A DNA stretch of 59,894 nucleotides from a virus (taxonomy: Duplodnaviria > Heunggongvirae > Uroviricota > Caudoviricetes). Positions 10,717-15,208 of this stretch are shown here, in pieces (position 1 is the stretch's first letter; each line of letters starts with the position of its first letter). The translations under genes and the position numbers were made by a program. Location: IMG/VR virus record IMGVR_UViG_2974697560_000001; one strand, 5' to 3'. The notes beneath the pieces are model-generated. The model was not told the origin of the DNA. It made no database searches and was given only the letters and a program-made list of their open reading frames with translations.

Positions 10717-10959
10717 TTAGGTAACGTCGGGGTCGGACTCTTCCTCATTACTGGCGACTTCATCGCCCATCACGAATGATGGGGGAGGAGAGAACGTCTT
10801 TCCAGCAGAATGGGCGTCGAATACGGCTTTCGCTTCATCAGGATTTACAGCACGAGCAATGCACATCATTACGTCGTAGATACGCAACAACATGATTGTC
10901 TGTACTATCTCTGATGCATCCTCTGCGAATACATCTTGAGGTTCGTTGTCACTGTTCAT
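10717..10959 (-). CDS. Hypothetical protein (80 aa)
   Basis: Start MNSDNEPQ overlaps the thyX stop. Confidence 0.65.
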   Translation of the reverse strand: MNSDNEPQDVFAEDASEIVQTIMLLRIYDVMMCIARAVNPDEAKAVFDAHSAGKTFSPPPSFVMGDEVASNEEESDPDVT

Positions 10960-11665
10960 CTTGTCTATCATTCCCAAATGGTCTGAGAGCGACAGGGAAT
11001 TCGGGAACAATGAGGTCACGAACGGCCTGCGCATACTGCTGAATTTCTAGCTGTGCCTTGTGCTCTAGCCTTTCATTGAGAAAGTGCATTACTGCTGCAA
11101 GGCTGGTAGTCCAACGCCATCTTACATACATACCATATGCGGGGAGGAATAGTCTTGCTTGTTCCGGCGCGAGTCCACTGTCCAATGCCTGATTGTATAG
11201 TGTCTCACCTTGTGCCAGGAATTCCTTGAGCATATCGGTGTATTGCTGAGAAGTGATAGGGTCTGCGTTTTCTCCGCTGCCCTGCTTCTTGTTTTCTGGT
11301 GCCATACGCCACTCTGTTGGAATGTGGTATACGGGGTCTTCTGTTATATAGCGTCTTGATGATTCGTTCCAGCCTATTTGGTCATCAAGATGGGTAGAAG
11401 CCACTGTATATTTCCACCATTGACGTGCAACGAATAGAGGTGCATAAACCTCAAACGTCATCGTGGCATGTCTGAATGGGGAATACTCGTTATTCCTGAC
11501 AAGGAAGTTGATAAGACGCTCATCCCTGTCTCCAAACTCTGCACTTTCCTTGGCATAAGATACTCTAGCTGCATTTACAATGGAAAGGTCACTTCCCATA
11601 TGGTCTACTAGACGTACATATCCTTCGTCAAGGACCCTGATAATATTCTGTTCCCCACCGGGCAT
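10949..11665 (-). CDS. thyX: Flavin-dependent thymidylate synthase
   Basis: GYVRLVDHMGSDLSIVNAARVSY, HxSPF-like YSPFRH, APLFVARQW, WNESSRRY, HKAQLEI. Confidence 0.93.
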   Translation of the reverse strand: MPGGEQNIIRVLDEGYVRLVDHMGSDLSIVNAARVSYAKESAEFGDRDERLINFLVRNNEYSPFRHATMTFEVYAPLFVARQWWKYTVASTHLDDQIGWNESSRRYITEDPVYHIPTEWRMAPENKKQGSGENADPITSQQYTDMLKEFLAQGETLYNQALDSGLAPEQARLFLPAYGMYVRWRWTTSLAAVMHFLNERLEHKAQLEIQQYAQAVRDLIVPEFPVALRPFGNDRQDEQ

Positions 11666-12125
11666 TTAGTCTCCTAATTGATTCGTAGTGCTTGAACTCC
11701 TTGTCCAAGCTGTCTTCTGCAAGCTTTCCGTGCCGGGCGTCTCTTTCTCCCTGGAAAAGGATTCCAATCCTGGCCTGCTCACTCTTGATAATTAGATATG
11801 GCTGTAGAAGAGTAAGGAAATCTCTAGCCATTTTAGAAGTCATCGCCCATTGCCATGATGGCTGAGCCTTTGGCCTACTCTTTTTCTCTAGAAGAGTCCC
11901 ACCAAATTTCATATGAAGTCGAACGAGAACTTCCCTGTTCGTACTGGACACGCTAACTCTCAATTGAAAGCTGTCTTTTCGCCCGTTGTATCCCTTGACC
12001 TTGTTGATAGAAACGCATCCTTCTCCATCAAACAATCCGGCGTAATAGGCTAGACTTAGTCTTTCTTCGAGTTCTAGCTTTTCTTCAACCATGTCTTGGT
12101 AATAGGGCTCTCTTTTGATTGCCAT
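11628..12125 (-). CDS. LAGLIDADG homing endonuclease
   Basis: LAYYAGLFDGEGCVSI motif; start MAIKRE after a leaderless-type promoter. Confidence 0.88.
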   Translation of the reverse strand: MAIKREPYYQDMVEEKLELEERLSLAYYAGLFDGEGCVSINKVKGYNGRKDSFQLRVSVSSTNREVLVRLHMKFGGTLLEKKSRPKAQPSWQWAMTSKMARDFLTLLQPYLIIKSEQARIGILFQGERDARHGKLAEDSLDKEFKHYESIRRLNARWGTEYYQGP

Positions 12126-12145
12126 GGTTCTATGGTACCACAACA

Positions 12146-12174
12146 AAGGCCAGAGCACAAATGCTCTGGCCTAA
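12146..12174 (-). terminator. Terminator overlapping the LAGLIDADG promoter
   Basis: GGCCAGAGCA-TTTG-TGCTCTGGCC-TTTG. Confidence 0.65.
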
Positions 12175-12175
12175 G

Positions 12176-12337
12176 TCATTCTTTGAGATTCGCAATCTCA
12201 CCATCGAGCCGCCGGACTTCGCGCTTGTAGCGCTGCTCCTCAATGCGGTTTCCCTTGAGCTTCGCTTTATCTGCACCCCTTTGTGCATTCCGGCGCTTTT
12301 CATACAGCTCGTTAAGAGCCCTTCTTACCCCATCCAT
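12176..12337 (-). CDS. Hypothetical basic coiled-coil protein (53 aa)
   Basis: MDGVRRALNELYEKRR...EIANLKE, read by hand. Confidence 0.55.
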   Translation of the reverse strand: MDGVRRALNELYEKRRNAQRGADKAKLKGNRIEEQRYKREVRRLDGEIANLKE

Positions 12338-12485
12338 TTGCTACCTGCAATTCCTGTAGGGCGTATATTTCCTTGGCTACTGCCTTTGCACGATTCTCGT
12401 TCTTGCCACGAACTCGCAGATACTCTTCTCTTAGAGCGTCAAGGCGTCGTTGGCATTCCCGTGCGTTCTTAGGTATGGCACTCAT
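12312..12485 (-). CDS. Hypothetical protein (57 aa)
   Basis: MSAIPKNARECQRRLDALREEY...; ATG overlaps the upstream stop. Confidence 0.55.
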   Translation of the reverse strand: MSAIPKNARECQRRLDALREEYLRVRGKNENRAKAVAKEIYALQELQVANGWGKKGS

Positions 12486-12802
12486 ACGTTATTCCTGTCA
12501 AGTATGCCGTGTATGTAATCGGCATCAATGTCGTCGTAGTTTGATAGCATTCTCAACTCTGAGACTGCCTCTTTGTACCGGCGATTTTCTGACAGATAGT
12601 TGTCAGCATCATTAGCCCACCGGTAGGCATCTTTGCGAAGTGCTAGGAACTTCTCTCGGGGAATCTCTTCATCGGGCAGGATATCAAATTCAACCCATAC
12701 TGAATACTCCTCTTCTGTCATTCCTAGAAACTCGTGGAGTGACATTTCTGTGTCACTGTCATGCCACTTGTCCACGAGGTCTTCTAGTTGTCCTTTGTTC
12801 AT
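12482..12802 (-). CDS. Hypothetical protein
   Basis: GAGGA RBS; WHDSDTEMSLHEFLGMTEEEY motif. Confidence 0.7.
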   Translation of the reverse strand: MNKGQLEDLVDKWHDSDTEMSLHEFLGMTEEEYSVWVEFDILPDEEIPREKFLALRKDAYRWANDADNYLSENRRYKEAVSELRMLSNYDDIDADYIHGILDRNNV

Positions 12803-13146
12803 GTCCTCAGTTTGTCACATGTCCTGGGACATTGTCAAGACGTGACACTGCCTTGTTCACCGTATTCACTGGGACATCTGTCCCCTTGATGTCACAAATC
12901 TGCTTGTGCAATTCTTTCCTGTCCGTGACACCCTTGTCCCATAGCTCTCTGACCAGGGCGGACACTGACTTGTCCTTGTTTGTCACCGATGTCTCTGTCA
13001 CCTTTTTTGTCCCTGGGACATTGTCCGTGACAGGAATGTCCGGTGACGTGACAGAAAATGTCTTGTCCTCTGTCTTTGTCACCTTGTCCTTTTTGTCACT
13101 TGTCTTGTCCTTTGTCTTCTTTCTGTCCAGAGGCTGTCCAGTGACA
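12741..13146. repeat. Dense TGTC/GACA tetramer array
   Basis: 40 TGTC or GACA occurrences counted by hand in ~410 bp (about 3 expected at random). Confidence 0.85.
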
Positions 13147-13664
13147 TTTGTGACGGCTTCATTCAGACGGAAGAATACCACATCCTTGAAGCCACGGAAA
13201 GTCTTGCCTGGGAAGATAAGCCAGCTAATCTTACCAAACACTGGCATACGCTTCGGAACAAGACCCATTGAGCGCATCTCGCTTCGGTGAATGAAGCGTA
13301 GATAAAGCTCGAAAAGGATACCGGCAATAACTGGTGGTGCTCCAAAAAGAACCATTCCAGGGATGCCATAGGATAGCAAGATGGCGTGCTCTACGTTGAG
13401 GTAGACAGACGCACCGACGAACAGATATGTTGCTAGTTTTGTTGCAAGGCCAGAATCTTCTGTTCTGGCATACTTTGAGGCAAGGTCAGCTACAAACAGA
13501 GCTGCGCCATCAAAAGCCGCGCTTACACCGATAGCAAGAATCTGGGGCACGCCATAGAACGTAATTGCGAGCGAATAAAGACTCCACCAAGATAGTGCGA
13601 GGCTTACAACAAGCACAATCGCAAAGCCGAGCCAACCAACCTTGAATTTCTTAAGATATTTCAT
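12807..13664 (-). CDS. DUF2637/Spd-like membrane protein with C-terminal HTH-like region
   Basis: Four hydrophobic segments (LALSWWSLYSLA, AAFDGAAL, ASVYLNVEHA), a T/D/K/V-rich linker and a helical C-terminus; start MKYLKK after GAGGAGAGGG. Confidence 0.7.
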   Translation of the reverse strand: MKYLKKFKVGWLGFAIVLVVSLALSWWSLYSLAITFYGVPQILAIGVSAAFDGAALFVADLASKYARTEDSGLATKLATYLFVGASVYLNVEHAILLSYGIPGMVLFGAPPVIAGILFELYLRFIHRSEMRSMGLVPKRMPVFGKISWLIFPGKTFRGFKDVVFFRLNEAVTNVTGQPLDRKKTKDKTSDKKDKVTKTEDKTFSVTSPDIPVTDNVPGTKKVTETSVTNKDKSVSALVRELWDKGVTDRKELHKQICDIKGTDVPVNTVNKAVSRLDNVPGHVTN

Positions 13665-14403
13665 TAGCCCTCTCCTCTGTGATAGGCTTGTCGTCCTTCC
13701 ATCCGACGATGATTGTATTTGGTCTATAATCAGTTTCGTGCAGATGCTTCTTTGAACTATTGCATGACTTACATAGAATTTGGAAGTTTCTGAAAGAGTG
13801 CTCTCCACCCAAATAGAGGGGAACAATATGGTCTAGAGTTAGAATGCTGTCTGACGTGCATTCAGGATTGAGACAGACATTGCCGTAGAAATCCTTAACG
13901 ATTGTCATGTAGTCTCTAGGAAGAGGTTCAACCGTTCCTGCACGTTTTGCAGCGAAGTACCTTGCATTGTTTCCTCTGACAATATCCCTATTGTTCTCAA
14001 CCCATCTACGAGTGTTCTCTTTTCTTCTTTCAGGATTGCTTTGATGCCATCGTCTGTTCTTTTCTCTAGCGGCCTCTGGATTATTCTTATGCCATTCGTG
14101 GTTCTTTTGCTTAACCTTATCCGGATTAGCTAGTCTCCAACGGCGGGTGGCTTCCCTATTTGGCTCAGGATTGACTGCCCTCCTGGCTCTCGCTTGGGCA
14201 TTCTTCTTTTCTCGGTTACGCTCGGTCCATTCGCGCTCATATTGTCTGAACTTATCTGGATTAGCTTCACGAGCCTTCTTGCGTTTAATCTTGGCGCATT
14301 CGAGGCAGTGCCCCTTCAATTTTATCGTGCCATCTGCCCTCTTTCCGTCCTTTCCAAATTCGGACAGCCCTTTAGACAGACCGCAGCTATTGCATGTCTT
14401 CAT
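13651..14403 (-). CDS. HNH homing endonuclease
   Basis: N-terminal CxxC, repeated NP(E/D)K helical units, LTLDHIVPLYLGGEHSFRNFQILCKSCNSSK. Confidence 0.9.
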   Translation of the reverse strand: MKTCNSCGLSKGLSEFGKDGKRADGTIKLKGHCLECAKIKRKKAREANPDKFRQYEREWTERNREKKNAQARARRAVNPEPNREATRRWRLANPDKVKQKNHEWHKNNPEAAREKNRRWHQSNPERRKENTRRWVENNRDIVRGNNARYFAAKRAGTVEPLPRDYMTIVKDFYGNVCLNPECTSDSILTLDHIVPLYLGGEHSFRNFQILCKSCNSSKKHLHETDYRPNTIIVGWKDDKPITEERANEIS

Positions 14404-14531
14404 GTAGCTACAGTAGCATAAAATTCATTATTGTGCCACCAACTCAGTGCCAGCGCGACAATGAGAACAACTCCGAATGATATTGAACCCCGCCAGTCAA
14501 GAATACGCTTGACGTTTGGCGTTTTCATCAT
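14400..14531 (-). pseudogene. Orphaned 5' fragment of the DUF2637-like gene (43-codon ORF)
   Basis: FGVVLIVALALSWW matches FAIVLVVSLALSWW at the N-terminus of 12807-13664. Confidence 0.7.
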
Positions 14532-14539
14532 TCTCCTTT

Positions 14540-14578
14540 AGACAAAAGTGCAGGCGGCCCGGATTGGACCGCCTGCTA
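14540..14578 (-). terminator. Intrinsic terminator
   Basis: GCAGGCGGTCC-AATCC-GGGCCGCCTGC then ACTTTT. Confidence 0.7.
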
Positions 14579-14583
14579 TGAAA

Positions 14584-14985
14584 TTATTTTCCTGACTCAC
14601 TGAACATCCAGAGCCACTTATCGATACCTCGCTTAACCTCAATGAGGACATCCTGTGTTGCAAGGTCATCGGTAATGTTCAGTATACCATTCTGTAGAAC
14701 GTGGGTCAATCCTCTTAGAGAACTCACCATGTTATCCACAACCTGCTGGTAACTTACTGATTCACCGGACATTTCGTATGCAACCTTTGGAGCAAGATAC
14801 CAACCGTTTGCTCGTGCACGTTCAGCGATAGTGTCAGCATATTCGGTTATATCGGAGTGAAGCTCATCCAGCTTCTCATGTAGGTAAAAGAACTCTTTAC
14901 CCCTGAGATTCCAATGACTCTCCTTGACGACCAAGGAGAGAATCAGAAGCCATTCGAGAGCTTCCTCCATCTTTGCTTCTAGCAC
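14584..14985 (-). CDS. dps: Dps/ferritin-like protein
   Basis: HWNLRGKEFFYLHEKLDE...DTIAER ferroxidase motif and C-terminal DLATQDVL...DKWLWM. Confidence 0.88.
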   Translation of the reverse strand: MLEAKMEEALEWLLILSLVVKESHWNLRGKEFFYLHEKLDELHSDITEYADTIAERARANGWYLAPKVAYEMSGESVSYQQVVDNMVSSLRGLTHVLQNGILNITDDLATQDVLIEVKRGIDKWLWMFSESGK

Positions 14986-15196
14986 TCTCCACCTCCTTAA
15001 TCGCCGTTTTTACGTTGTGATGCATCTCTAGACCAGGAAGTATGTAAGTATCACATACCATGCACCATAGTCTGAGGTCGGTAGATGCACCAGGCTTTAG
15101 TCTGACTATCAAATTGTTATGACAATCGGGACACTCTAGTGCCGGGGCCAAATTCTCTTTGACTAGTCGATTGTATTTATGAAAGTCCTGCCACAT
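14897..15196 (-). CDS. Zinc-ribbon hypothetical protein
   Basis: CPDC...CMVC; TACACT -10 six nt before the ATG; overlaps dps. Confidence 0.6.
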   Translation of the reverse strand: MWQDFHKYNRLVKENLAPALECPDCHNNLIVRLKPGASTDLRLWCMVCDTYILPGLEMHHNVKTAIKEVESARSKDGGSSRMASDSLLGRQGESLESQG

Positions 15197-15208
15197 GACA
15201 TAAGTGTA

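Follow-up and report, generated by a model that had tools for sequence, protein, structure and literature searches.

Mobile ORFs (mORFs) that form gene hybrids have been described from fungal mitochondria, where they occur in atp6 of Allomyces macrogynus, in atp6, atp9, cox2 and nad3 of Glomus, in atp9 of Rhizopus and in cox2 of Mortierella (PMC3630166). In these hybrids an endonuclease ORF of the LAGLIDADG or GIY-YIG type lies inside a protein-coding gene and brings with it a foreign, diverged 3' end, which is in frame with the retained core of the gene and groups with another lineage; the native end persists alongside as a duplicate remnant, and the endonuclease ORF is often fused in frame (PMC3630166). 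In phages, free-standing endonuclease genes are found inside what is a single ORF in relatives, as with mobE in nrdA of Aeh1 and mobA in T4 gene 39/60, and there the complementary pieces must reassemble (PMC2988022). HEG-islands with T5orf172 and IPA-HNH nucleases were described in ICP1 and other phages by Barth, Dunham and Seed (2023); free-standing endonuclease genes adjoin conserved phage genes, and nucleases lie at the boundaries of genetic exchange (PMC10448857 / PMC10055350). The small ORFs in the islands are fragments of neighboring essential genes, and are suggested as possible recombination substrates (PMC10055350). T4 intron homing with one-sided homology proceeds by illegitimate double-strand-break repair at microhomologies (Parker et al. 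1999, in PMC2988022).

Here we describe a locus in a cluster BE1 Streptomyces phage (Samistivirus) where a gene for a DUF2637 membrane protein is split by an HNH endonuclease gene and carries a substitute start. The window, by which we mean the whole stretch of 59,894 nucleotides that was analyzed (IMG/VR record IMGVR_UViG_2974697560_000001), is 99.0% identical to phage EGole in this region. All relevant genes lie on the minus strand, with a ferritin-like gene and a terminator followed by three overlapping ORFs (Table 1): the stub, the HNH gene, whose start codon overlaps the TGA of the stub (ATGA), and the rebuilt DUF2637 gene, whose first 14 nt lie within the end of the HNH gene. The terminator abuts the ribosome-binding site of the DUF2637 gene and thus leaves no space for a promoter between them (14541-14576). 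In HNH-free phages the gene must therefore rely on terminator read-through or on an upstream promoter; the consensus scan gives one candidate, TTGACC-17-TATACT (14709-14681), inside the ferritin-like gene.

Table 1. Features of the split DUF2637 locus (positions in the window).
Feature	Position	Strand	Remarks
Ferritin-like gene	14584-14985	-	Pfam Ferritin; upstream of the stub
Intrinsic terminator, 3' of the ferritin-like gene	14550-14576	-	11-pair stem with 9 GC pairs, T-rich tail
Ribosome-binding site AAGGAG, native to the DUF2637 gene	14533-14538	-	now serves the stub; identical in HNH-free relatives
Stub ORF, 43 codons	14400-14531	-	native codons 14436-14531, then 11 insert-encoded codons and TGA
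Left TTGGTGG copy (Trp-Trp codons)	14436-14442	-	left junction, presumed break site
Inserted cassette, 852 bp	13584-14435	-	leader, HNH gene and foreign DUF2637 5' end
Cassette leader, 32 nt, AT-rich	14404-14435	-	no Shine-Dalgarno sequence; contains the proposed -10 TACTGT (14410-14415)
HNH endonuclease gene, 250 aa	13651-14403	-	Pfam, PHROGs, alignment and PDB match
New ribosome-binding site GAGGAGAGGG of the rebuilt gene	13668-13677	-	strong; inside the HNH C-terminal tail
Foreign 5' end, 27 codons (MKYLKK... to ...LSWW)	13584-13664	-	takes the place of 31 native codons
Chimeric full-length DUF2637 membrane-protein gene, 285 aa	12807-13664	-	foreign 27 codons and resident remainder

Comparison with relatives reveals a true insertion. 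A megablast search gave 46 matching phage records, and the counts of HNH-free relatives given here rest on the matches listed. Among these, EGole alone (two records) covers the full query, and at least 38 others cover 62-63% of it in two pieces; these HNH-free relatives have one uninterrupted DUF2637 gene, the closest at 99.2% identity (e.g., the Lululemon flanks). In Lululemon the gene is a single ORF of 289 codons, which runs from its native MKTPN... start through ...LSWW straight into SLYSLA.... Walking the alignment with Lululemon from both sides places the insert exactly at 14435 to 13584, directly after the LSWW codons. The heptamer TTGGTGG bounds the insert at 14436-14442 and again at 13584-13590, so that the exact joint is ambiguous within 7 nt. 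The DUF2637 gene was therefore split after its LSWW codons by an HNH insertion that stranded its native first 31-32 codons as a stub. The native part of the stub is identical to Lululemon, and its native ribosome-binding site and start codon have been kept without decay. In the PHROGs comparison the stub corresponds to positions 1-32 of phrog_10376 (E 9.4e-12) and the long ORF to positions 13-303, and BLASTP aligns the stub with the new start at E = 2.6e-5. A search for stub-sized proteins returned EGole gp31 only.

The window and EGole both carry the cassette (99.9% identity), and the same site is empty in the at least 38 listed relatives; such a polymorphism for presence and absence at a fixed site in near-identical genomes is what is expected of a free-standing HNH homing endonuclease. 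It is rare, being found in EGole and the window phage among about 30 sequenced relatives. EGole, which was deposited separately, has this structure in common with the window although the two differ elsewhere, and an assembly artefact can therefore be excluded. The first-pass annotation, made from the letters alone, had proposed an HNH element that splits a gene between two ...LALSWW peptides, with a 43-codon ORF at 14400-14531 and an insert at 13584-14435. The uninterrupted gene in the HNH-free relatives bears this out: both peptides are present, and the insert boundaries and the ORF match to the base. The same annotation had held that the invaded gene remains intact, and a full-length protein is indeed still encoded, through the ribosome-binding site, the start codon and the 27 codons that the insert supplies. 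The arrangement it had named as speaking against an insertion, both ORFs side by side without the HNH gene, was seen in none of the listed relatives.

An insert that lies precisely between two codons of an otherwise continuous frame, and that holds an endonuclease gene as many phage group I introns do, might also be a self-splicing intron, whose removal from the RNA would rejoin the native start to the body of the gene. We give this explanation next to no credence. Splicing would be pointless for an insert that carries a full ribosome-binding site, a start codon and a replacement membrane helix, and no boundary within the TTGGTGG ambiguity combines a U ahead of the 5' splice site with a terminal G. 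In addition, a permissive Rfam search of both strands between 13300 and 14700 produced nothing at E <= 1, in agreement with the earlier description of the insert as intron-free. A group I intron with a homing endonuclease was considered as a class for this element; the ribozyme core that defines it is absent at the same threshold.

Almost as improbable, in our judgment, is a protein made from two indispensable pieces, one from the stub and one from the long ORF, in the manner of the nrdA of Aeh1 that mobE splits. The preserved ribosome-binding site and start codon of the stub would fit such an arrangement. The contents of the two ORFs overlap, however, within the protein family, and the long ORF has a first membrane helix of its own. 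Two non-overlapping, complementary fragments would define a gene in pieces, and here the long ORF is full length. Its chimeric product scores 27.4 bits with Pfam DUF2637 (above the cut-off), matches phrog_10376 at E 1e-150 and shows 96% identity to the Lululemon-type protein along 97% of its length.

The enzyme encoded by the cassette looks intact, as judged from its motifs. The protein matches the Pfam models HNH_5 (38.1 bits, cut-off 27.5) and HNH (36.1 bits, cut-off 21.4), phrog_1035 (E 1.2e-27) and PDB 4h9d (E 2.4e-4). In an alignment of 19 family members, the invariant residues C177, C182, D191, H192, N206, C211, N215 and K218 and the near-invariant C214 are all present, so that the HNH (beta-beta-alpha metal) catalytic motif is complete. 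Family members are built alike, with a zinc ribbon at the N-terminus, then tandem NxE...RxW repeats, and the HNH motif at the C-terminus. The part with the zinc ribbon and the repeats that follow it (several, of about 19-20 aa each; residues ~45-150 of the protein studied here) is covered by no Pfam model and is presumably the DNA-recognition module. The C-terminal tail extends well beyond the C-termini of most of the 18 aligned homologues. The gene is read from a start codon of its own, out of frame with the host gene, and lies in neither an intron nor an intein.

The origin of the replacement start was addressed by comparing the first 60 residues across 86 homologue clusters. Nearly all close phage-type homologues share the resident type of start (...LDWRGS.SFG...). 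The 27 residues supplied by the cassette agree with the native N-terminus of P0112 at 19/27 positions and with the resident start at 11/27. P0112 is the best and the only full-length match to the cassette start among the 86 clusters; the next-best matches span the membrane helix only. The P0112 gene has a native MKYLKK... start and no HNH gene directly upstream, and it shares ~76% DNA identity with the window, counted from the start codon. It comes from L004, a divergent BE-like metagenomic phage (Logan SRR12949885 contig, 122 kb). Upstream of the DUF2637 gene in this phage the ferritin-like gene is absent, and a different HNH gene of 154 aa is found ~900 bp away.

At the DNA level the old and the new copy in the window are 48% identical across 81 nt; for the 14 membrane-helix codons common to both, the value is 64%. 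On these comparisons the replacement start is identifiable as a foreign orthologous 5' end, not as a recoded copy of the resident one. The first-pass annotation had noted that the second copy uses different synonymous codons, which is correct for 7/8 of the degenerate codons that encode the same residue in both copies, including a serine encoded by AGT in one and TCT in the other. This codon divergence is that expected between distant orthologues, so that deliberate recoding need not be invoked. What had been called a recoded N-terminal copy is thus a rebuilt N-terminus as claimed, but the recoding has to be given up in view of the greater similarity to P0112.

The position of the junctions suggests how the foreign 5' end arrived. 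To the right of the junction, the HNH-containing phages share no difference from the HNH-free phages over 219 nt, and a search for a co-conversion tract found two or three SNPs specific to the HNH-containing phages (13364, 13155 and perhaps 13161), each at a distance of over 200 nt and together too few to indicate such a tract. A donor as diverged as the replaced segment should give tens of differences in the next 73 codons. The lack of any shared difference where tens would be expected places the switch from donor to recipient within ~10 nt of the truncation of the old copy. Both junctions thus lie at the same codon, and this argues for a site-specific break that was repaired from a donor.

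We consider it likely, from the arrangement of the sequences, that the insert is a homing-endonuclease cassette of the free-standing HNH type, brought into the DUF2637 gene when a site-specific break was repaired from a divergent relative. The donor would have carried the HNH gene directly upstream of, and overlapping, an orthologous gene with a MKYLKK-type start. The HNH-free allele would have been cut either at the Trp-Trp codons (TTGGTGG^AGT) or no more than a few bases from them, and synthesis primed by the right end would have run leftward on the donor, taking in the opening 27 codons of its gene, the HNH gene and another 32 nt upstream. No donor homology would have been available to the left end, which would have been joined illegitimately, possibly at the microhomology TTGGTGG. 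The finished cassette, now with homology on both sides, could then have been shared between at least two mosaically different BE1 phages. A carrier would be protected from its own enzyme because neither half-site of the HNH-containing allele reproduces the intact target. The HNH protein could nevertheless be a passenger or inactive.

A passenger role would follow if co-infecting phages had recombined illegitimately upstream of a donor HNH gene and homologously inside the DUF2637 gene, so that the structure would be a passive mosaic joint. Mosaicism is strong in the genomes of cluster BE at this place, where blocks meet near 15198 and 12572, and the rarity of the cassette would also be compatible with a chance joint. 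However, the second crossover would have been free to fall anywhere within ~800 nt of the gene or beyond it, yet it lies ~10 nt from the truncation of the old copy, a coincidence that we roughly estimate to arise by chance in less than 2% of cases. The insert is, moreover, significantly more conserved between the two carriers than the right flank. We regard a passive joint as improbable and retain break repair as the preferred reading.

The conservation of the insert can be judged from the differences between the window and EGole, which number 1/852 in the insert (position 14413), 3/565 in the left flank and 19/884 in the right flank. In Fisher tests the insert differs from the right flank (p = 3.9e-5) and from both flanks together (p = 6.7e-4); against the left flank alone the difference is not significant (p = 0.31). 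The sole difference within the cassette, C in the window and T in EGole, falls in the proposed -10 (TACTGT versus TATTGT) and changes Thr to Ile in the tail of the stub. The flanks of the window are closer to those of the HNH-free Lululemon, with 0/565 differences in the left and 12/884 in the right flank, than to those of EGole. Beyond a mosaic boundary at ~15198, EGole is roughly 15% divergent (an estimate from the listed differences), whereas the window differs hardly at all from Lululemon, Peebs and Pepperwood; below a second boundary at ~12572, the window diverges from EGole, Lululemon, Peebs and Pepperwood alike. The pattern of insert and flanks fits a recent lateral movement of the finished cassette between genomic backgrounds. 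The excess conservation of the insert could also stem from flanks that were overwritten by later recombination with HNH-free phages.

Near the second boundary, another endonuclease gene was observed. An ORF at 11628-12158 on the minus strand encodes a LAGLIDADG endonuclease (Pfam LAGLIDADG_1, 26.6 bits) and lies directly upstream of, and overlaps, ThyX. It has no counterpart in EGole, Lululemon and Peebs, and the N-terminus of ThyX differs. Its flanks (10800-11635 and 12183-12700) are 75-86% identical to those phages, compared with ~99% at 12580-15198. This ORF may well be a second endonuclease gene that marks the margin of an exchanged block; no stub was seen at this locus.

A donor with an HNH gene directly upstream of a MKYLKK-type gene was not found in 50,697 phage records, IMG/VR, JGI metagenomes, GTDB genomes and a set of 5.8 billion proteins. 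With blastn the insert matched EGole only among the 50,697 phage records. The next-best tblastn match of the HNH protein was 33% identical, at unrelated loci, and the next-best match in the 5.8-billion-protein set was 35% identical, on a contig of 963 bp that offers no context. Searches of IMG/VR by protein and with a degenerate pattern for the MKYLKK start returned EGole only; the degenerate pattern produced four chance matches in the JGI metagenomes and no donor, and the GTDB genomes likewise held none. At three other loci of this HNH family, in the related Streptomyces phages Riptide, TunaTartare and Bmoc, no duplicated gene ends were present, and the upstream and downstream ORFs were dissimilar. 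A wider proposal is that all parts of the cassette are adaptive: it would be a self-contained, "exon-replacing" homing element that homes repeatedly into the conserved LSWW/SLY site of DUF2637 genes, its foreign 5' end destroying the recognition site while keeping the host gene whole, and the stranded start serving as a translational launch pad for the endonuclease. We put this forward tentatively, as rather less likely than its opposite. If true, it would be a general route, independent of introns and inteins, by which endonuclease genes colonize the interior of phage ORFs.

No Shine-Dalgarno sequence precedes the start of the HNH gene, and its expression has to be explained in another way. 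The native ribosome-binding site still precedes the stub, whose TGA overlaps the HNH start, so that the stub probably feeds ribosomes to the HNH gene; the three ORFs would then be expressed as one overlapping unit. We favor such translational coupling via ATGA over a leaderless HNH mRNA. The first-pass annotation had proposed a promoter at the left junction (TGGCAC-17-TACTGT, with TGGCAC as the -35) and a leaderless HNH; the mRNA would start at the HNH ATG, and the HNH gene would then not depend on the stub. A leaderless message would need no Shine-Dalgarno sequence, TACTGT ends 6 nt before the ATG, and the terminator lies just upstream of the stub. TACTGT (TATTGT in EGole) also fits what we take to be a loose actinobacterial -10 of the form TANNNT, with the right geometry for a leaderless start. 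The consensus scan, on the other hand, did not call TGGCAC-17-TACTGT as a promoter, and promoter-like sites are as frequent in the region as in shuffled sequence (3 found, 2.9 expected). By manual count the two hexamers match the consensus at 2/6 and 3/6 positions, TGGCAC agreeing with TTGACA at only two, and we estimate that TANNNT would occur at the right distance by chance in a few percent of cases. The junction promoter is therefore not supported, and the exact overlap of stop and start is a prediction of translational coupling. A leaderless message is, in our view, unlikely, though less so than the passive joint considered above.

The case shows, with base-exact junctions, that an endonuclease gene can reside inside a protein gene without an intron or intein by supplying a substitute gene end. 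In the process the host protein becomes a chimera and sequence is carried across distant phage lineages. For annotation, it follows that the 43-codon "hypothetical protein" (EGole gp31) is a gene remnant and not a new gene. Both alleles are represented among cultured isolates: the HNH-containing EGole and the HNH-free Tribute were isolated on Streptomyces griseus, and the HNH-free Lululemon and Peebs on S. lividans. Homing, target specificity, self-protection and the coupling between stub and HNH gene are thus testable where carrier and non-carrier share a host. Searches of open-access literature found no description of this cassette or of a case in phage in which a 5' end is replaced.

Among the systems described so far, the T4 intron system resembles the proposed entry of the cassette, in that mobile DNA is acquired with one-sided homology and a microhomology junction permits sites unlike the donor context (PMC2988022). 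The T4 case is an experimental intron system, whereas the cassette is natural and intronless, and TTGGTGG would here play the part of the microhomology. With the HEG-islands the cassette shares a free-standing endonuclease gene next to a conserved phage gene, a fragment with nucleotide homology to a full-length gene, and a location in a region of genetic exchange; the passages considered describe the island fragments in general terms, without base-exact junctions, a chimera with a foreign start or a stub coupled by stop and start codons (PMC10448857 / PMC10055350). Like mobE and mobA, the HNH gene is a free-standing endonuclease gene inside what is a single ORF in relatives, but here the downstream ORF is complete and the upstream piece redundant (PMC2988022). 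The mORF gene hybrids are the closest match in layout, since the cassette, too, combines a foreign in-frame gene end with a remnant of the native one (PMC3630166). It differs from them in being a phage element with an HNH enzyme, in replacing the 5' end, for which reason it must also supply a ribosome-binding site and a start codon, and in having a stub positioned to drive translation of the endonuclease. The cassette thus works like an mORF without being a member of that group, and is its mirror image at the 5' end.
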